Notes under the pieces: generated by a model
What the model was told of the DNA's origin: nothing
Seen by the model: the letters and a program-made list of their open reading frames with translations, nothing else
The model's database searches: none
Assembly: GCA_963665665.1 (NCBI GenBank)
Contig: OY762428.1
Coordinates: 1,760,001-1,824,000, forward strand
Direction: 5' to 3'
Source of the DNA: Candidatus Kapaibacterium sp.
GTDB taxonomy: Bacteria; Bacteroidota; Ignavibacteria; Kapaibacteriales; UBA2268
Length of the DNA stretch: 64,000 bases
Shown: in pieces, positions 14,871 to 31,771 of the stretch
How the letters are laid out: the number at the start of each line of letters is the position of its first letter
How positions within the stretch are numbered: position 1 is the stretch's first letter
Made by a program: the position numbers and the translations under genes

Positions 14871-15428
14871 TTTCCGTAACCTCCCTTATCCACGAGCTAA
14901 AGCACGTGGCTATTGAATTTGACGATTATAAGGCTGGGATGTCATTCTGAGCGCCAGCGAAGAATCCATTCTTAATACCTAATCTGCAAAGAAAGATGGA
15001 TTCTTCACTTTGTTCAGAATGACGGATGGGAATGTCCCCCGCTGGCGGGGGTGGATTCTTAAAATTCCCCTCGTTGAGGGGTGGCGAGCGCAGCGAGTTC
15101 CCGACACGTCGGGACAGGCAGGGGTGGATTCTTCACACACTATCTGCAAAGAAAGATGGATTCTTCGGTCGCTTCGCTCCGTCAGAATGACAACATAACA
15201 CCTCATTCTTTTGCTCAGTTTACCCGTTCTTCCACCCAAATGAACAGGCCGCCGGCCTTAATTCCCCAACCTGTGGTTTCAATGAATCGGATAATTTCCT
15301 TATTTCAATGCTGTTTTTAATCAAAACCATGATGTTTGGGCTAATTGCTTTGTTGGCAGGGCTTTAAACTGCCTTGGCCGGAGTTATTGAACTACTGTTT
15401 GGCCTTAATGTAGTGAAATTTGGCCTCA

Positions 15429-15575
15429 TTGAACACTTGGTTGACCTTATTGAACACTTGGTTGACCTTACTGAACACTTGGTTGACCTTATTGAACACT
15501 TGGTTGACCTTACTGAACACTTGGTTGACCTTACTGAACACTTGGTTGACCTTACTGAACACTTGGTTGACCTTA
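15429..15575. repeat. 21-bp tandem repeat, 7 full units
   Basis: Unit (T/C)TGAACACTTGGTTGACCTTA, head-to-tail, no spacers. Confidence 0.95.
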
Positions 15576-15592
15576 CTGAACATGTTCTTTGC

Positions 15593-16112
15593 CTCCGACC
15601 AAGAGTTCAATGACTTCGACCAAGGCGTCAATAAAGCAAAACATTGCTGCAATAGTGTCGACCAAGAGTTCATTATCTTCAAACATCAGTACAATGATTT
15701 GAAACAAGGCAGCAATAACTTCGAACAAGGCAGCAATGACTCCGACCAAGGCATCAATGACTTCAACCAAGGCGTCAATAACTTCAACCAAGGCATCAAT
15801 AACTCCAAACAAGGCATCAATGACTTCGACCAAGGCATCAATAACTCCGACCAAGGCATCAATAAAGCAAAACATTGCTGCAATAGGTGCAAACAAGAGT
15901 TCATTATCTTCAAACAAGGCGGCAATAAAGCAAAACATTGGTGCAATGACTTCAACCAAGGCAGCAATAAAGCAAAACATTGCTGCAATAGTGTCGAACA
16001 AGACCTCAATACCTCTGACCCCTCCCAAACCCTCCCCGAAGGAGAGGGCTTTGAAGAAGAATAAGGCGGCAATGAGTTAGAACATCAGTGCAATAACTTA
16101 GACCAAGGCAGT
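15593..16112. repeat. Degenerate 21-bp-period array, inverted relative to the 15429 array
   Basis: Approximate consensus TTCAACCAAGGCATCAATAAC; its reverse complement ATTGATGCCTTGGTTGAAGTT aligns with ATTGAACACTTGGTTGACCTT. Confidence 0.85.
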
Positions 16113-16824
16113 AATAGGTTAAACCATTGGTGCTTTGCTTTCGACACTTTCTACCTCCCCCCGCCCCCCTCCTTCAAAAGGAGGGGGAGTTAATTCTATG
16201 ATATTTAACTTCTTATCCCCTCCTCGGGGAGGAGGGGAATAAAGGGGTGGTTTTCTTGCTTTGCTTTGGGTCAGGGCACATTTATCCACGCGCTAAAGCA
16301 CCTGGCCATTGAATTTGACGATTATAAGGCTGGGATGTAATCCTGAGCACCAGTGAAGAATCCATTCTTAATACCTAATCTGCAAAGAAAGATGGATTCT
16401 TCACTTTGTTCAGAATGACGGATGGGAATGTCCCCCGCTGGCGGGGGTGGATTCTTAAAATTCCCCTCGTTGAGGGGTGGCGAGCGCAGCGAGTTCCCGA
16501 CACGTCGGGACAGGCAGGGGTGGATTCTTCACACACTATCTGCAAAGAAAGATGGATTCTTCGGTCGCTTCGCTCCGTCAGAATGACAACATAACACCTC
16601 ATTCTTTTGCTCAGTTTACCCGTTCTTCCACCCAAATGAACAGGCCGCCGGCCTTAATTCCCCAACCTGTGGTTTCAATGAATCGGATAATTTCCTTATT
16701 TCAATGCTGTTTTTAATCAAAACCATGATGTTTGGGCTAATTGCTTTGTTGGCAGGGCTTTAAACTGCCTTGGCCGGAGTTATTGAACTACTGTTTGGCC
16801 TTAATGTAGTGAAATTTGGCCTCA

Positions 16825-16992
16825 TTGAACACTTGGTTGACCTTATTGAACACTTGGTTGACCTTACTGAACACTTGGTTGACCTTATTGAACACTTGGT
16901 TGACCTTACTGAACACTTGGTTGACCTTACTGAACACTTGGTTGACCTTACTGAACACTTGGTTGACCTTACTGAACACTTGGTTGACCTTA
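16825..16992. repeat. 21-bp tandem repeat, 8 full units
   Basis: Same unit as 15429-15575 with one extra copy. Confidence 0.95.
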
Positions 16993-17009
16993 CTGAACAT
17001 GTTCTTTGC

Positions 17010-17529
17010 CTCCGACCAAGAGTTCAATGACTTCGACCAAGGCGTCAATAAAGCAAAACATTGCTGCAATAGTGTCGACCAAGAGTTCATTATCTTCAAA
17101 CATCAGTACAATGATTTGAAACAAGGCAGCAATAACTTCGAACAAGGCAGCAATGACTCCGACCAAGGCATCAATGACTTCAACCAAGGCGTCAATAACT
17201 TCAACCAAGGCATCAATAACTCCAAACAAGGCATCAATGACTTCGACCAAGGCATCAATAACTCCGACCAAGGCATCAATAAAGCAAAACATTGCTGCAA
17301 TAGGTGCAAACAAGAGTTCATTATCTTCAAACAAGGCGGCAATAAAGCAAAACATTGGTGCAATGACTTCAACCAAGGCAGCAATAAAGCAAAACATTGC
17401 TGCAATAGTGTCGAACAAGACCTCAATACCTCTGACCCCTCCCAAACCCTCCCCGAAGGAGAGGGCTTTGAAGAAGAATAAGGCGGCAATGAGTTAGAAC
17501 ATCAGTGCAATAACTTAGACCAAGGCAGT
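17010..17529. repeat. Degenerate 21-bp-period array, second copy
   Basis: Translations identical to those of 15593-16112 at offset 1417. Confidence 0.85.
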
Positions 17530-17964
17530 AATAGGTTAAACCATTGGTGCTTTGCTTTCGACACTTCCTACCTCCCCCCGCCCCCCTCCTTCAAAAGGAG
17601 GGGAAGTTAATTCTATGATATTTAACTTCTTATCCCCTCCTAAAGTAGGAGGGGAATACAGGGGTGGTTTTCTTGCTTTGCTTCCGGTCAGGGCACATTT
17701 ATCCACGCGCTAAAGCACCTGGCCATTGAATTTGACGATTATAAGGCTGGGATGTAATCCTGAGCACCAGTGAAGAATCCATTCTTCACACACTATCTAA
17801 CTAAAGAAGATGGATTCTTCCGTCGCTTCGCTCCGTCAGAATAACAGATGAAGAGTACGCTGCTGCCATGCAGAAAATGTGATGGAATATTATCATTACA
17901 TAATCATCTTATAATCTATTACCTGCTTACAATTATATATTACATTGAACCGTTCATAGTTATT

Positions 17965-25343: not shown

Positions 25344-26969
25344 ATGCCCAAATTTATCTTATTTTGTATTATTGCTTTTAGCTTTGTCTCATCGCCTCAT
25401 CTTAAAGCTGACGAGGATTCCCGTGAAGGAGATTCTCTGGCCCTGGTAGCACTGTATAATTCAACAAACGGCCCGGAATGGTATGATAGCAGAAACTGGC
25501 TCAGCAATGAACCTATTGACAAATGGGAAGGAATTGAAGTTCGTAATAACAGAGTTTTCTGCATCGATTTAATACGTAATGATTTGGTTGGTGAATTACC
25601 TGATGAGATTGGCAACCTAAAGTGGGTGCACTATTTTGCTTTGGCATTTAATCGCCTGGAAGGATCAATACCTGAAACTATTACAAATATTGGAAATTGC
25701 CAACTTCTTTATCTTAATGCTAATTGCCTGACTGGGCATATTCCAGATTCAATTTCTAAACTACAAAATCTTTTATGGCTTGATCTTAGTAATAATCGCC
25801 TGACTGGAAAGATTCCGAATTCTATATGTAGTATGAAAAAACTATCATCCATAGACCTTAGTCACAATATCATTTTTGGCGAATTGCCTGAAAAATTGTA
25901 TGAAATGGAAAATTTATCGAAATTAATATTAAGTGATAATAAAATAAGCGGCAATTTTATCGAACCCCTGCAAAATGCAAAAGAACTAAAGGAATTGTAT
26001 TTGAACAATAATGACATGATTGGAAGTTTAACTGATGATCTGTCTGGTTTTACCCGATTAGAAGTTTTAAATATCAGCTATAATAATTTTAGCGGATCAA
26101 TAACAAATAATCTTTCCGCTTTTTCAAAATTGAAAATCCTTGATATTAGTAATAATTATTTTTCAGGGACTATCCCGTCCGGGTTAAGTGCTTTAAAGGA
26201 TTTAGAAAAGTTTGATATATCAGGAAATAATTTTTCGGGCCAAATACCGAAGGAATTAACTGAATTACCTGAACTATCAGTTCTAAATCTGTCTTATAAT
26301 ATGTTTCAGGAAAAGTTTGACTTTGAATTAGATTCTCTGAAAAATTTAGACTATCTATATCTCGGAAATAATAAATACCAGTTTGATATGTTCGAAGAGA
26401 TTTATTCAGTTTTCGATCGACTGGACTATTATTGGATATCTCCTCAGGACTCAATCGGAGAAGCCCAAACCATTATAGCTGATCTGTATGATAATATAAT
26501 CCTATCGGCAGAATGCAGGGGGCTAAATAATATTTATCAATGGTATAAAGATAGAAAAGCTTTCAGTGAAAAATCGGATAACCCATTTCTTGAAATAAAT
26601 AATTTTTCTAAAATTGATACAGGTGTATATATTTGTAAAATAACCAATTCTTTAATTAAAGGTTTAAGAATCTATAGTAAACCACAGGTATTAAAATTAC
26701 CTCCTATGGGAATAAACGAAAACAATCAGGTTGTTAAGGATGATTTTGAAATATTTTTGGATTCTGAAAACCATTTGGCCGCAAAGTGGAACAATTTTCT
26801 TAGGGATGTGATTTTATATATTCACGATATTCGGGGCAGCAAAATATATGAAATCAATCCAGAAGGCAATTGTACAAATATCCCTGTGAATAACTTTTCA
26901 CCGGGAGTTTATATCTGTACAATTTCCGATGGCCTTAAATCATTTTCTAAAAAATTCATTGTCAGGTAG
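25344..26969 (+). CDS. Leucine-rich-repeat protein with Ig domain and T9SS CTD
   Basis: DSLALVALYNST.G..W cap; plant-like LRRs L.LS.N.L.G.IP; YQWYKD...DTGVY.C Ig motif; C-terminal IHDIRG...SPGVY...KKFIVR. Confidence 0.9.
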   Translation: MPKFILFCIIAFSFVSSPHLKADEDSREGDSLALVALYNSTNGPEWYDSRNWLSNEPIDKWEGIEVRNNRVFCIDLIRNDLVGELPDEIGNLKWVHYFALAFNRLEGSIPETITNIGNCQLLYLNANCLTGHIPDSISKLQNLLWLDLSNNRLTGKIPNSICSMKKLSSIDLSHNIIFGELPEKLYEMENLSKLILSDNKISGNFIEPLQNAKELKELYLNNNDMIGSLTDDLSGFTRLEVLNISYNNFSGSITNNLSAFSKLKILDISNNYFSGTIPSGLSALKDLEKFDISGNNFSGQIPKELTELPELSVLNLSYNMFQEKFDFELDSLKNLDYLYLGNNKYQFDMFEEIYSVFDRLDYYWISPQDSIGEAQTIIADLYDNIILSAECRGLNNIYQWYKDRKAFSEKSDNPFLEINNFSKIDTGVYICKITNSLIKGLRIYSKPQVLKLPPMGINENNQVVKDDFEIFLDSENHLAAKWNNFLRDVILYIHDIRGSKIYEINPEGNCTNIPVNNFSPGVYICTISDGLKSFSKKFIVR

Positions 26970-26976
26970 GAAATTG

Positions 26977-27001
26977 CAGCCTCCCCGATAAAAGGAGGCT
27001 G
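26977..27001. terminator. Hairpin between convergent genes
   Basis: CAGCCTCC-N9-GGAGGCTG. Confidence 0.6.
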
Positions 27002-27009
27002 TTTAAATT

Positions 27010-27765
27010 TTACGGACTTTCTATCCTTACAGACTGCACTATCTGGTTCTGCCACATTGAATATAGCGTAGTTTTTATCTCTTCTTTCAATTTGTCATTA
27101 AGTTCCGGTTCATGTCGTTTTTGTACTTTGTATAAAGAATATTTATCAGCCTCCTGAATTGGTCCGACAATCTCACCTTCGTCGGCAGTAAATACTTTTC
27201 CTTCAATTTCCGGCGCAAGCATTCCCCTGCGTATATTACCGATATTTCCACCTGACATCTTCAGGCCCGGATCTTCGGAATACTTAGTGGAAAGCCCGGA
27301 AAAATCCTTGCCGTCGTCACGTGCTTCCATCAGCAGTTCCTCGGCCTCTCCTTTTTTTGAAACTAAAATCTTCAGCAGGTCCACGGTAAGGTAGAGCATT
27401 TTATTCTGAATAAAATACTGCTCAATTTTATCATCGCCAATGATTGTTTTTTTTACCTTGGTTTCAAGAAATTCAAATTCTATGCTATCTATCCACTGGT
27501 CAGAGGTAATTCCCATCTGGGAAAAATACTGCTGCGTTTCCTTCGCTGATATTAGTCCGAGTTTTTTTCGTTTATCATTAACGTAATTTTGCAACTCATC
27601 ATCACTAACTTCAATTTTCTGATGCTTGGCAAAATCCTGGATAGCCCTGATTCTGATCAGATCCTGAAGGGCCTGGCGAAACTTCCCCTGTGTTTTCAGC
27701 AGGATAAGTATGTCATTCTGGGTAACCTCAGCATCATTTACTTTAATAATTACATTGTTTTCCAT
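27010..27765 (-). CDS. PpiC/parvulin-type peptidyl-prolyl isomerase (PrsA/SurA-like foldase) without signal peptide
   Basis: N-terminal helical module IEVSDDELQ..VN..R...GL.SA.ET; rotamase motifs ILV....EAEEL......G.DF..L..KYSED......GG.IG...RG.L.PEIE..VF....GEIVGPI. Confidence 0.85.
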   Translation of the reverse strand: MENNVIIKVNDAEVTQNDILILLKTQGKFRQALQDLIRIRAIQDFAKHQKIEVSDDELQNYVNDKRKKLGLISAKETQQYFSQMGITSDQWIDSIEFEFLETKVKKTIIGDDKIEQYFIQNKMLYLTVDLLKILVSKKGEAEELLMEARDDGKDFSGLSTKYSEDPGLKMSGGNIGNIRRGMLAPEIEGKVFTADEGEIVGPIQEADKYSLYKVQKRHEPELNDKLKEEIKTTLYSMWQNQIVQSVRIESP

Positions 27766-27785
27766 ATTCGGAATCCTGTTTAAAT

Positions 27786-27819
27786 AAAAAAAGCTGCCCC
27801 GAATTCTTTCCGGGACAGC
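27786..27819 (-). terminator. Intrinsic terminator-like hairpin between the two chaperone-like genes
   Basis: Minus strand GCTGTCCCG-GAAAGAATT-CGGGGCAGC followed by T7. Confidence 0.7.
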
Positions 27820-27837
27820 CTGTAATTTAGTTTGGAT

Positions 27838-29124
27838 TTACAATGAAGCAGCATAGTTTTTAAATGCAGCTTCTTTCACCATGCTCATGAAAGCCTCATT
27901 TTCATTAAGGAATTTCATAATATCGTCAGCGCCGGTTTTCGCCTCATAGAATTTATTTATTGTTGCGCCTTTTTCGCACATATCAGCCCATGTATCTTCG
28001 CAAATTGCATGAGCATCAAGCCATGCGCCGGTTTCTGCAGCGTTGTGCAGTCCGTTCATTCTGCGCAGGTTGTCCGAAAAATCATTTATTTCTTTATCAG
28101 TTGCTTTAATACCTTCAGTACCGGCAGCATTGAAGAGTTTAGCATAAGTTACCATATCGTTCAGGGCAGCTGCAAATTCTTTTGAAGCCAGAACAGCTTT
28201 CACGATTTTCTCATCATTGAAAAGTTCAATACCGTCTTTGGCAAATTTGCGTTTCAAAAGCTCGGTAACTACCATGTACTCGAATTCATCCATGCTGAGC
28301 CCTGTGGAATTCAGCCATGTTTCGAAAGTAGCAACAGAGTGAAGTTTCATTATCCTGCGGAAATTATCTACAAATTCCTGGATTTCGTTTTCTTCAATGT
28401 CAATATTGTTTTTCTTTGCTTTTGCATGGATAATCTGGCCGAAGAGCATATCGGAAATCAGGCTGTTCAGCACGGGATACTTCTGTAATGCATTAGCAAT
28501 CTCATTCCTGAAGAATTCTTCCAGGTTTTCATCCTGAAGCTGATTAAGTACAATACCAGAATGTACATGTTTTTCCCAGTCGTCTTCATTCATACGTACA
28601 GCCGCAAGGAATGTCTGAAATTCTTCCAGGCTGTGCATACCCATAATCCTGCGAATATCGTCGGATGTTTCCTGAAGAATTTTGTCATCGGCTGCAATAC
28701 CTTTTGCTTTGGCCTTATTGATAATTTCATCAGTAATATGATTTCTAACTTCAGGAATACCTTTTACAAGTTTCCATGCATCAGCCATTACAACTGAATT
28801 ACCAATAGCAGCACGGGCTTTTTCCCTGAACAATTCATTTTCCAGGGTTTCTTCCCATTCGTCAAGAGTAATTCCCAGCGCTTCAAAGAAATTATTTGTT
28901 TCATTTGCATTGTGCAGCCCGAGTTCCAGCCGCCTGAGATCGGAATATGCCTGCAAAGTTTCGTCGCTTATCTGCAAACCGCCATGAACCGCGTGGTCCC
29001 TGATAACTTCGTTCATAACGACAGTTCTGCGAGCATTGTGGTAAGAGCCGTTCATTTTCATAAATGCCAAAACATCTTTTGCTGTGATTTTGGTTCCGGC
29101 TATGTCGCATAAAGTTTTGTCCAT
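27838..29124 (-). CDS. Protein of four tandem SurA-N-like helical modules, no rotamase domain
   Basis: Four ~100-aa repeats centred on SDLRRLELGLHNANET, SDDIRRIMGMHSLEEF, VDNFRRIMKLHSVATF and SDNLRRMNGLHNAAET; each resembles the N-terminal module of 27010-27765. Confidence 0.75.
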   Translation of the reverse strand: MDKTLCDIAGTKITAKDVLAFMKMNGSYHNARRTVVMNEVIRDHAVHGGLQISDETLQAYSDLRRLELGLHNANETNNFFEALGITLDEWEETLENELFREKARAAIGNSVVMADAWKLVKGIPEVRNHITDEIINKAKAKGIAADDKILQETSDDIRRIMGMHSLEEFQTFLAAVRMNEDDWEKHVHSGIVLNQLQDENLEEFFRNEIANALQKYPVLNSLISDMLFGQIIHAKAKKNNIDIEENEIQEFVDNFRRIMKLHSVATFETWLNSTGLSMDEFEYMVVTELLKRKFAKDGIELFNDEKIVKAVLASKEFAAALNDMVTYAKLFNAAGTEGIKATDKEINDFSDNLRRMNGLHNAAETGAWLDAHAICEDTWADMCEKGATINKFYEAKTGADDIMKFLNENEAFMSMVKEAAFKNYAASL

Positions 29125-29304
29125 TGTCTCTCCGGGTGAATGTGTATAATGTATTTTCTACTTGGATAGCCATTTTTTGAATTTACATATAGTGAATATA
29201 AAAAAAAACTTTATATGATAAAAAAAATTTATTATCTTTTCCTAAGAAAAATTATACATTCAGAACCTATTCAAGATTTTTTCATCATATCAGGGATAAA
29301 AATT

Positions 29305-29772
29305 ATGGCAAAGATTAAAATCAATGACCTGGAACAAAATTCCGAACTTGATGCCAAAGCAATGAAATCAGTAGTTGGCGCAGGCCTTATTGATCAAAGC
29401 AGCGGAATAAGCGGCAATACCGGACACAAAACCGGGGGCTCGGCAACAAACCAGGGCGACCAGACAGGTGGTGCCGGCGGAGCAGGCGGAAGCTCATTTG
29501 GTATTAATGATACAGATAACTTCGGAGGCCACGGCGGAGGTGCAAGCCAATATACCGGAGGCGGCCATCACGACTGGTGGGGCTGGGGTTGGGGCGGCGG
29601 TGGCTCTATTACCGGTTCGAACGCTACCGGCGGAGCAGGCGGCGGTGTAACAAGCATTGGCGCAGTTGGCGGAGCAGGTGGTGCAGGCGGTGCTGCAGTA
29701 GGAGCAATGGGTGGCGCTGTTTCTGATAATGTATCAACATCCATCTCAATGCCCGTTACCATGAATATTTAA
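29305..29772 (+). CDS. Gly-rich precursor protein with double-glycine-type leader (155 aa)
   Basis: MAKIKINDLEQNSELDAKAMKSVVGA has L(-12), M(-7), V(-4) and GA(-2/-1); Gly/Ala/Ser/Thr-rich core; AGGGA before ATG 29305; own terminator. Confidence 0.8.
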   Translation: MAKIKINDLEQNSELDAKAMKSVVGAGLIDQSSGISGNTGHKTGGSATNQGDQTGGAGGAGGSSFGINDTDNFGGHGGGASQYTGGGHHDWWGWGWGGGGSITGSNATGGAGGGVTSIGAVGGAGGAGGAAVGAMGGAVSDNVSTSISMPVTMNI

Positions 29773-29792
29773 TTAATCCGGTTATTGGAACT

Positions 29793-29824
29793 AAAAAAGG
29801 CAGGATTTTCATCCTGCCTTTTTT
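29793..29824. terminator. Bidirectional intrinsic terminator
   Basis: AAAAAA-GGCAGGAT-TTTC-ATCCTGCC-TTTTTT between the precursor gene and yidC. Confidence 0.9.
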
Positions 29825-29827
29825 AAT

Positions 29828-31771
29828 TTATTTTTTCTTTTTACCGCCCTGTTTCGGAGATGATTTTTTTACATCTTTTTTCTTGGGTGGAATATATCCT
29901 TTTCTTTCAGTTCCGCCCGAACCGGCCTTCTTGCCCGGAACAGTCTTGCCCTGGGAAGCAGCTACTTCCTGTGCCTCGCGGAGTTTTTTCTGGAACCAGC
30001 CTTCCTTCTTAGGTGCTTTTTTAAGATCATCCAGGGTAAGCTGATTTTTTGAAAACTTATTAATATAAACCTGCTGAATAATACCTACCAGGTTGAACAT
30101 GAAATAATAAAGGTTCAAACCTGACGGGAAGCTTGAGAAAAGAAGGGTGAACATGACAGGCATCATGTAAACCATTGCTTTCTGCCTCGGGTCGGTTATT
30201 GTCAGTTTCTGCTGGATAAACATTGTTACGCCCATGGCAAGGGCCAGCCCGCTGAACTGGTCGATATTAAAAAGCGGTATCCTGAACGGCAACGAAACAA
30301 GTACATCCGGTACCGAAAGGTCATTAATCCACCAGATAAATTCCGTCTGCCTGAGATCAATGGCCGAGCGGAGGATTGACCATAGCGAATACAGGATTGG
30401 CATCTGCAGCAATAACGGCAGGCAGCCGCCGGCGGGGTTTACTCCGTACTCGGAATAAAGTTTCATAGTAGCCTGCTGCTGTTTTGTGTTGTCGTCCTTG
30501 TATTTCTCCCTCAATTTCTCCATTTCCGGCTGGAGAAGCTTCATTTTGTTGGCGCTTCTCATCTGTTGGATGGATAGGGGATAGAGAAGAATTTTTATCA
30601 GAATAGAGAACAGAATTATTGCCACGCCGTAATTGGGTACAAAATCATGTATGAACTGAAGGATCGGCAGCATGAAGAACTCGCCTATTGGCCTTACCAG
30701 CCATTTCCAGCCCATATCAATAGTTTCACTCAACCCGTATTCCGAAAGAATATCATATTCCATCGGGCCGATATAAACCATAAATTTATTGGTGCTGGAA
30801 GCATTCCTGTAAGGAATTCTGTAGGACATATTGTATTTTTCTACAAGGCCTTCGTTTCTAACTGCTTTTTGCCTGCCACTCAAATCGATAGTGCCATCAA
30901 AATCTCCCTGTGGCCGGGGCATAATAGCAGCAACAAAATACTTCAGCTTTATGGCAGTATAATCCACGATGCCTGTAGGTGAAATACGCTGCTCTTCGGA
31001 TTCATCGGCGTTCAGGTATTCAATTTCCCCGTTCATCGAGGCCATGGCTTCTGCGGAATTGGATTCATCAACAGAATTCTTTTCCTGGTAGCTCAGGCCG
31101 TCGGACCATATAAAATTGTAACCGCGTTCAGGTATAAAAGACTGCATATTCTGAAGGCTGATATCCGTATTTATATGATATTTATCGGCGTAAATAACAA
31201 AAGTTTTATTGATATACTTATCAGGAGCAACATTCAGCCGTGCATTAAGCAGAATGGAGTCTTTACCTGATATTTGATAATAATCTTTATCAAGATTAAA
31301 ATCGAAGAACAGGTCGCGGGAATCAATTTTCTTGCCTTCATAAGTAAGGAATTCAAGGAAAAGTTCACCTTTCTTATCAGAGATAAGCTGTGTTGGTTTC
31401 TTATCCCATTTTTTATAATTTTTCAATTCCCATTTTACCAGGTCGCCACCCATTGTAGAGAACTTTGCAGTAACAAGGTCAGTTTCAATAGTAATAACTT
31501 TCCTGTTACCATTGGCAAATGGTGCAAAAGTTTTTCCGAATTTGAGCTCATTGACGTTACTTGCGTTTGCTGAAGTTGCAGAATCGCTAAGGATATCGTC
31601 AGCTGAATCAGCAGAAGCAGTGTCGGTCTGTGCTTTTTGCTCAACAAGTGTTGAATCATTAATATTTTGATTTTTTTCGGGCAGGTCCGGCGCTGTCATC
31701 TGATTATAAATGAGCCATGCCGCAACTATCAGCGTAATTAGCAGAATTGCCAGTAAATTATTTCTGTCCAT
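29828..31771 (-). CDS. yidC: Membrane protein insertase YidC
   Basis: N-terminal TM, periplasmic domain (YIGP), NYGVAII..., [37 protein letters not shown]; synteny with yidD-rnpA-rpmH. Confidence 0.97.

Follow-up and report, generated by a model that had tools for sequence, protein, structure and literature searches.

We identified a divergent three-gene locus in a 64,000-nucleotide stretch of a Candidatus Kapaibacterium genome (this stretch is referred to as the window, the genome as G000 and its contig as C1; other G-numbers denote genomes and L-numbers related loci). The window probably contains one of three scattered loci that together encode a double-glycine (GG) secretion system; this would be of the 'long PCAT + HlyD + SurA-like protein' type, PCAT being a C39 peptidase-containing ATP-binding cassette (ABC) transporter. 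Two of the genes are located on the minus strand. The gene at 27838-29124 (-) encodes a four-repeat SurA_N-like helical protein of 428 amino acids (aa) without a peptidyl-prolyl isomerase (PPIase) domain (Pfam and NCBIfam), and the gene at 27010-27765 (-) encodes a protein of 251 aa in which a SurA_N and a parvulin-like domain are combined in a PrsA-like architecture (Pfam). Both proteins are predicted to be cytoplasmic. On the opposite strand, a Gly-rich frame extends from 29215 to 29772 (+), and an internal ATG at 29305 gives a 155-aa protein starting with MAKIKINDLEQNSELDAKAMKSVVGA. This protein consists of a double-glycine-type leader of 26 residues, MAKIKINDLEQNSELDAKAMKSVVGA, encoded at 29305-29382 (+) and predicted to be helical, and a Gly-rich core of 129 residues which together with the stop codon occupies 29383-29772 (+) and was delimited by family alignment and composition. 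An AT-rich intergenic region of 180 bp (29125-29304) separates the divergent genes and presumably contains their promoters. The three open reading frames (ORFs) and their divergent arrangement, which had been predicted earlier without database searches, were confirmed from the sequence.

The leader of the Gly-rich protein has the residues originally ascribed to it, namely GA at -2/-1 and hydrophobic residues at -4 (V), -7 (M) and -12 (L). It aligns with the leaders of 11 relatives, which end in GG or GA. A search of 128,791 ORF starts in the genome with a hidden Markov model of this leader identified exactly three ORFs (E<=1.2e-12), all of them precursors. The model contains these three by construction, and the next best ORF had an E value of 0.53, so that there are no others. 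The two paralogous precursors are located at G000:C1:3150168-3151639, and the three leaders end in GA, GA and GG. Compared with TIGR04149 (GG_sam_targ_CFB), a leader family of peptides made by ribosomes and modified post-translationally (RiPPs) that are modified by radical S-adenosylmethionine (SAM) enzymes, the window leader scored 15.3 bits, which is below the cut-off of 25. No radical SAM gene was found among the neighbours read, and no genome-wide radical SAM search was made. Maturation of the radical SAM, YcaO or LanM type was considered and rejected, as there is no Cys in the core and none of these enzymes was seen among the neighbours.

The core contains 44 Gly among its 129 residues (34%), a single Pro and no Cys, Arg or Glu, and has a pI of 4.7 and a mass of 11.7 kDa. 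Its C-terminus is a conserved (I/M/V)P(V/I)TMN(I/L) motif, in which the single Pro is invariant in the family alignment, and conserved Trp or Tyr positions are present in the cores. Gly spacing showed a period-3 signal in 12 of 12 cores (z 0.9-3.4), too weak for a polyglycine-II or collagen-like fold to be claimed. In the AlphaFold2 (AF2) model of the precursor (predicted local distance difference test, pLDDT, 36.2; predicted template modeling score, pTM, 0.14) a low-confidence leader helix at residues 7-24 is the sole feature. Orthologs of the window ORF in other genomes are 54-75% identical to it, indicating that the ORF is more than a chance reading frame. The family is very small: an exhaustive profile search of 1.84 billion proteins returned five representatives at E<=0.001. 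A database representative of the family, P0015 (217 aa), has about 70 extra N-terminal residues foreign to the family, and this extension might stem from a run-on in gene calling instead of a fusion. Pfam gave no match for the Gly-rich protein, and a word-indexed protein search with the precursor gave no match either and also missed the query itself.

The two SurA-like proteins are related to each other. In Pfam searches the 251-aa protein matched Rotamase (PF00639, 46.7 bits) and SurA_N_3 (29.3 bits), and the 428-aa protein matched SurA_N_3 (45.3 bits). TIGR04500 (PpiC_rel_mature), the family of MirC, matched the 428-aa protein in four stretches (86.8 bits) and the 251-aa protein with 46.9 bits, both below the cut-off of 180. 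A regular expression for the repeat motif LQ.Y.D..RR..GLH...W located it at residues 150, 248 and 346 of the 428-aa protein and once in the 251-aa protein; the first repeat copy of the 428-aa protein, near residue 57, was read from the alignment. Homology was found between repeat 1 of the 428-aa protein and the N-terminal 107 residues of the 251-aa protein (hhalign probability 99.3%, E 2.7e-20). Among 5.8 billion clusters 14 relatives of the 428-aa protein were found, and its comparison with PDB sequences gave nothing useful. Neither protein has a signal peptide, as had been stated before, since in both cases the start is the first possible codon and the N-terminus is not hydrophobic (Kyte-Doolittle maximum over 12 residues <1.0).

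The parvulin domain of the 251-aa protein resembles PrsA, and its best solved relative is 6vj6 (E 9.9e-11). Catalytically active parvulin PPIases are defined by two conserved active-site histidines. Alignments with chains of PrsA and PpiC were used to locate these positions, and all five orthologs (5/5) have replacements there: residue 132, the first of the two, is K or R, and residue 210, the second, is S or T. The earlier designation of this protein as a PpiC foldase is therefore doubtful with regard to enzyme activity. Because the SurA_N module occurs fourfold, the PPIase histidines are gone and the cargo is a long, disordered protein with a single Pro, the sequences suggest that a role as holdase or escort is more likely than proline isomerisation. 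Co-folding of the 428-aa protein with the precursor resulted in scores of 0.01 and 0.00, which is no evidence either way.

The original prediction had assumed an exporter acting in trans. A genome-wide search for a C39 transporter identified one C39 domain in G000, located in a protein of 1023 aa (C1:3941744-3944815) with two stretches matching cNMP_binding, a Peptidase_C39 domain (118.9 bits), ABC_membrane and ABC_tran. In an alignment with PCAT1 (4ry2), Gln, Cys, His and Asp of this protein are in register with those of PCAT1, and these residues we take to be the C39 active site. The ORF directly upstream of the exporter (466 aa) has a HlyD_3 match (37.4 bits), and the HlyD-exporter pair is also present in G015 and G023. 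About ten TolC-like genes (19 domain hits) occur in G000, none of which adjoins the exporter. The exporter lies 2.15 Mb from the window locus, and the system as a whole is spread over three loci of G000 (at 1.789, 3.150 and 3.942 Mb) rather than gathered in one cluster.

Co-occurrence of these components was analyzed in 61 genomes, consisting of G000 and 60 relatives. The profile of the 428-aa chaperone matched three of the 61 (G000, G015 and G023), and the precursor profile matched the same three, with three copies in each. As exporter query the first 500 residues were used, which span both cNMP domains, the C39 domain and the beginning of the membrane part. This query matched 15 of the 61 genomes at E<=1e-10; over residues 3-500 or 10-500 only G000, G015 and G023 matched it (55-57% identity), and the other 12 genomes matched the C39 part alone with at most 36% identity. 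The counts of three in 61 are not independent events because the genomes are related to each other. Among 300 other genomes sampled evenly from the class the chaperone was not found at all, and this restricted distribution (3/61 relatives and 0/300) indicates that the chaperones are not housekeeping genes. Two further genomes with a four-repeat SurA_N protein, G649 and G650, also hold Gly-rich precursors. These two are labelled Chitinispirillum, which puts a Fibrobacterota label among the carriers, and Kapaibacterium. The public label of G015, whose contig is L002, is Hyphomicrobiales, yet this genome was placed in the family of the window genome.

The gene neighbourhoods of chaperone homologs, obtained in a related-locus search built on 11 closer sequences, are linked to ORFs with a GG leader and to PCAT and HlyD genes, as had been proposed. 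In L002 a single cluster contains the three precursors, a lipoprotein, a 361-aa protein with a predicted prenyltransferase (PT) fold and the SurA_N-repeat and PpiC-like proteins, with the exporter located outside. In G000 the corresponding genes are divided between two places, the window and C1:3149006-3151639, the latter encoding a 335-aa protein, precursor 2, the lipoprotein and precursor 3. In L004 and L036 genes for the SurA_N-repeat protein, the PpiC-like protein, HlyD and a cNMP-cNMP-C39-ABC exporter are consecutive on one strand. L037 and L040 are more distant, and their gene order is PCAT, HlyD, a SurA_N+PpiC protein, a SurA_N-only protein and two small GG-leader peptides, the leaders of which are of the same type (M.RI.LKDL.......EM..V.GG) and the cores of which are unrelated to the Gly-rich family. 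A Caballeronia megaplasmid contains this module too, with leaders of that type, and on an annotated Tolypothrix plasmid two 'peptidylprolyl isomerase' genes adjoin HlyD and a 'peptidase domain-containing ABC transporter'. This synteny in distant lineages indicates that the SurA-like pair is associated with the exporter and works on cargo of various kinds. It is the four-repeat SurA_N form that the Gly-rich family accompanies, and a precursor gene divergent from a SurA_N-repeat gene is also seen in L002, L003 and L035, the last of which is a metagenome contig. Taken together, co-occurrence and synteny support the proposal that the Gly-rich ORF, the two SurA/PpiC-like proteins without signal peptide and the trans-acting C39 exporter form one functional set.

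Some of these loci showed additional features. In L037 (10017-11102) and L040 (10022-11107) a Cys-rich protein of 361 aa with a faint PqqD-like match (E 0.054) is encoded downstream of the two GG-leader peptides. A sigma-54-dependent activator (L036:15189-16421) directly follows the long PCAT in this metagenome version of the module. At L003:7806-7990 and in L042, both from the genome labelled Kapaibacterium, the expected Gly-rich stretches are N runs and only the C-terminal ends are visible.

The original statement that no modifying enzyme is encoded is true of the window. Elsewhere in the genome a protein with a predicted PT fold adjoins the paralogous precursors. This PRENYLTRANSFERASE-fold neighbour of precursor 2 is 335 aa long (G000:C1:3149006-3150013, which corresponds to L005:4006-5013, minus strand), and its ortholog in L002 is 23% identical (E 2e-16). 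The protein has no sequence match in Pfam (E<=5), NCBIfam or PDB, and a word-indexed search returned the protein itself alone. Its AF2 model, based on 7 sequences, consists of five alpha-alpha-beta-beta units (pLDDT 79.4, pTM 0.81). In a Foldseek search of PDB with this model all matches listed (ranks 1-47) were aromatic prenyltransferases, including IptA, PriB, Orf2/NphB, CloQ, AmbP1 and FgaPT2, with E values down to 1.3e-8, TM (template modeling) scores of 0.41-0.55 and about 10% identity. Neighbours found with a protein language model were also prenyltransferase-like, at 0.88-0.89 only. R183, K314, K325 and Y327 are conserved in the family and located in predicted strands, R183 being invariant in 7/7 sequences. 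Membership of the ABBA prenyltransferases is defined at sequence level by PF11468, PF11991 and PF19156 and by Lys/Arg/Tyr residues that bind diphosphate; the predicted structure of the 335-aa protein matches the ABBA aromatic prenyltransferase fold (PT-barrel).

In a sample of 401 genomes of the phylum, 7 contained the PT-fold family. Members are also present in L029, L030, L031 and L034; a JmjC/cupin protein immediately precedes the one in L029, and a DUF7005 protein precedes a member in L032. Based on the modelled fold, prenylation of the cargo is possible; cyanobactin F-family enzymes prenylate peptides. A second gene linked to the paralogs encodes a DUF6252-like lipoprotein of 162-165 aa, which is always located between precursor types 2 and 3 [L005:5701-6189 (+), L002:760-1257 (-) and L021:1936-2430 (-)] and is 37% identical between G000 and G015 (E 5e-31). 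Immunity, anchoring and a receptor function are candidate roles for this lipoprotein.

The mechanism put forward in the original prediction, chaperone-assisted export of a Gly-rich protein, is the best-supported one, and the system is real and coherent. Three paralogous Gly-rich proteins would be made in the cytoplasm with a helical leader of 26-28 residues. The four-repeat SurA_N protein and its paralogous partner, with one SurA_N module and a degenerate parvulin domain, would act as cytoplasmic holdases or escorts that keep the long, disordered and aggregation-prone cargo export-competent and pass it to the transporter. By analogy with its family, the cNMP-cNMP-C39-ABC exporter would cut after GA or GG and, together with HlyD and one TolC-like protein, release a mature protein of about 115-130 residues. 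The PT-fold protein encoded beside the paralogs may first modify an aromatic residue, although this step is speculative. Outside the cell the mature proteins might act as conserved structural or self-assembling components of the surface or matrix, like EbfG1-4 exported via PteB. We lean tentatively towards such a structural extracellular role rather than that of a fast-evolving toxin, because three paralog types are kept across genomes and the cargo is more conserved than the machinery (68-70% versus 45-57%). Between G000 and G015 the identity is 68-70% for the cargo, which low-complexity Gly runs may partly inflate, 46% for the SurA_N-repeat protein, 45% for the PpiC-like protein and 55% for the PCAT.

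Several observations weigh against this reading. The exporter adjoins neither chaperones nor cargo in G000, G015 and G023, and L035 lacks a PpiC-like gene after its SurA_N-repeat gene. In a RiPP cluster, a SurA-like protein (MirC) has so far been shown to be a partner of a modifying enzyme and not of an exporter, as far as the available passages report (PMC13097080). The PT-fold gene is present in three of the five system-carrying genomes (G000, G015 and G650, in the last of which it does not adjoin a precursor) and was not found in G023 and G649, both of which are fragmented. Finally, no immunity-like or matrix-related gene settles the role of the cargo.

The strongest alternative concerns this role: the Gly-rich proteins could be bacteriocins similar to class II microcins, unmodified or lightly modified and both cut and exported by PCAT, HlyD and TolC, with the DUF6252-like lipoprotein providing immunity. 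Class II microcins have a GG leader, a mature peptide of less than 10 kDa and an adjacent immunity gene. The GG leader, the acidic Gly-rich core without Cys, the exporter consisting of PCAT and HlyD and the conserved lipoprotein between the paralogs agree with this, as does the patchy distribution across phyla, with presence in 3/61 relatives, absence from the class sample (0/300) and yet presence in a Fibrobacterota-labelled genome. A cyanobacterial tandem bacteriocin family was a weak language-model neighbour (0.77, a lead only), and clusters of this kind were named bacteriocin clusters in a 2011 survey, in the passages available (PMC3140520). On the other hand, the 11.7-kDa core exceeds the usual size of microcins, no small membrane immunity ORF was recognised beside the window copy and the Gly-rich protein has no similarity to a named bacteriocin family in Pfam or NCBIfam. 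Moreover, the three paralog types are orthologous across distant genomes and more conserved than the machinery, which is unusual for toxins in an arms race. We regard a bacteriocin role as possible but rather doubtful.

A second alternative concerns the SurA-like proteins, which could be obligatory partners of a modifying enzyme (the PT-fold protein) in the way that MirC is for the graspetide synthetase MirB, and not export escorts. Cytoplasmic SurA-like MirC is required for modification and its cluster contains a PCAT, according to the passages found (PMC13097080); both window proteins have sub-threshold matches to the MirC family, and the PT-fold gene shares one cluster with the chaperones in L002. 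These matches (46.9 and 86.8 bits) are below the cut-off of 180, however, no ATP-grasp gene was present among the neighbours read, and the PT-fold gene was not found in two of the five system-carrying genomes. The SurA-like genes adjoin HlyD and PCAT in L004, L036, L037, L040, Tolypothrix and Caballeronia, and no PT-fold gene occurs in the stretches read, which makes this explanation unlikely compared with escort to the exporter.

A more specific scheme, which we consider quite improbable, is as follows: the prenyltransferase would lipidate a conserved Trp or Tyr of the disordered core, the SurA-like proteins would act as holdases that maintain its solubility and a cNMP-gated PCAT would cut and export three co-assembling paralogs, resulting in RiPP-like products of protein size that form a lipid-anchored, Gly-rich polymer of the surface or matrix. 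If true, this would be the first assigned function for the SurA-like proteins of long PCATs across phyla. That the Gly-rich ORF is no gene or its adjacency coincidental, and that the SurA/PpiC-like proteins are housekeeping foldases beside yidC, is highly improbable: the locus adjoins the conserved rpmH-rnpA-yidD-yidC block and the word-indexed search with the ORF was empty, but full-length orthologs or paralogs with conserved leader and C-terminus are present in at least five genomes and one metagenome contig, the chaperones are confined to 3/61 relatives and 0/300 genomes of the class sample, and the divergent pairing recurs in three other loci.

The locus lies between a gene for a 541-aa leucine-rich-repeat protein [25344-26969 (+)], which is directly upstream and has an Ig (immunoglobulin)-like part and a C-terminal sorting domain of the type IX secretion system (Por_Secre_tail, 33.4 bits), and yidC [29828-31771 (-); PF02096, 204.8 bits], which is followed by the genes for YidD and the RNase P protein. 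Hairpins had been predicted to bound the locus on both sides. The one located 3' of the precursor gene and shared with the convergent yidC (29792-29825) was found by the terminator scan on the plus strand and resembles a terminator (15 pairs, loop of 4, T-run). The other, an inverted repeat GCAGCCTCC...GGAGGCTG at 26977-27002 that separates the leucine-rich-repeat gene from the 251-aa gene, was read from the sequence; it did not pass the criteria of the scan and is possibly a bidirectional terminator. A further terminator-like hairpin [27791-27821 (-)] with 13 pairs, of which 7 are GC pairs, and a T-run lies between the 428-aa and 251-aa genes and is a consensus match only. Sigma-70-type promoter matches were no more common than in shuffled sequences (7 versus 7.4), no conserved motif was found in an alignment of four upstream regions, orthologous or paralogous, and Rfam had no match in the window. 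Elsewhere in the window, 15357-17563 contains two tandem units with a spacing of 1396 (about 1.4 kb) that are 98-100% identical, each of which holds arrays of 21-nt (7-codon) repeats; related DQGSNNF-like peptide repeats were listed by tblastn at many other positions in the genome.

The system was put forward as a candidate new one. This is not supported: the system is a variant of an architecture already known, as a long ABC transporter with CAP_ED and C39 domains, HlyD, a SurA-like rotamase protein and GG precursors were already described for cyanobacteria in 2011 (PMC3140520). In the passages available, Wang, Fewer & Sivonen (2011) define the cyanobacterial 'bacteriocin' cluster groups I, II and VI by HlyD, a 'SurA' with a rotamase domain, an ABC transporter of the long type (CAP_ED + C39) and GG precursors that measure 28-164 aa and are rich in Gly, Cys, Ser and Thr, and report group I in 42 of 43 cluster-bearing genomes (PMC3140520). 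G000 has the same parts, namely a long CAP_ED/cNMP-C39 ABC transporter, HlyD, a SurA-like rotamase protein and GG precursors. In contrast to these groups, G000 is not cyanobacterial and its genes are distributed over three loci, one member of its SurA-like pair lacks a rotamase domain and has grown to four SurA_N repeats, and the cargo, with which a PT-fold protein and a lipoprotein are associated, is, compared with the main text of that survey, a distinct and very rare Gly-rich family with three conserved paralog types. In the literature searched, only two genome-mining papers link SurA and C39 clusters. No paper was found with a test of the SurA-like proteins in long-PCAT clusters (supplements were outside this search), nor was any found on the combinations cNMP/C39/PPIase/HlyD or double-glycine/glycine-rich/PPIase.

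Functional precedents are available for single parts of the system. EbfG1-4 of Synechococcus elongatus PCC 7942 are small paralogs with GG or GA motifs, secreted with the C39 transporter PteB, that work outside the cell in biofilm formation and not as antibiotics, indicating that a GA site is usable, according to the passages found, in which a role of SurA-like proteins is not mentioned (PMC4997328). The presence of several paralogous GG/GA cargos together with a C39 exporter is shared with G000; the organism and the composition of the cargo differ, and no likeness in sequence was seen between the cargos. HetC of Nostoc PCC 7120 is an exporter with cNMP, C39 and ABC domains, as is that of G000, and the function of HetC depends on its cNMP domain, which binds ppGpp (guanosine tetraphosphate) in vitro (PMC10986499). 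Unlike HetC, which in the passages available has no HlyD gene nearby, the G000 exporter adjoins HlyD and three candidate substrates can be identified. MirC (TIGR04500) is a cytoplasmic SurA-like partner of the rosaritide graspetide synthetase, encoded with a PCAT and proposed to be a chaperone or substrate presenter (PMC13097080). As described there in part, MirC has an N-domain similar to a RiPP recognition element and no recognisable PPIase domain; the window proteins score below the cut-off of its family, and no ATP-grasp ligase is present among the neighbours read here. The 335-aa protein shares its predicted fold with ABBA aromatic prenyltransferases (IptA, PriB, NphB/Orf2 and CloQ); it differs from these enzymes in being only about 10% identical and in that its substrate would be a protein and not a small molecule.

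Compared with these systems, new here are the four-repeat SurA_N-only protein, the degenerate parvulin domain and the dispersed gene layout, and also the very rare three-paralog family of Gly-rich cargo (115-130 aa) and its link to a prenyltransferase fold. SurA-like genes accompany long cNMP-C39 exporters not only in nearly all cyanobacteria of the 2011 survey but also in Burkholderiales, Bacteroidota-type genomes and one Fibrobacterota-labelled genome. With its fourfold module, lost histidines and single-Pro cargo, the variant described here is a sharp test case for the role of the SurA-like proteins; it provides three concrete candidate substrates for an exporter of the HetC/PteB type and connects a prenyltransferase-fold protein with double-glycine cargo.

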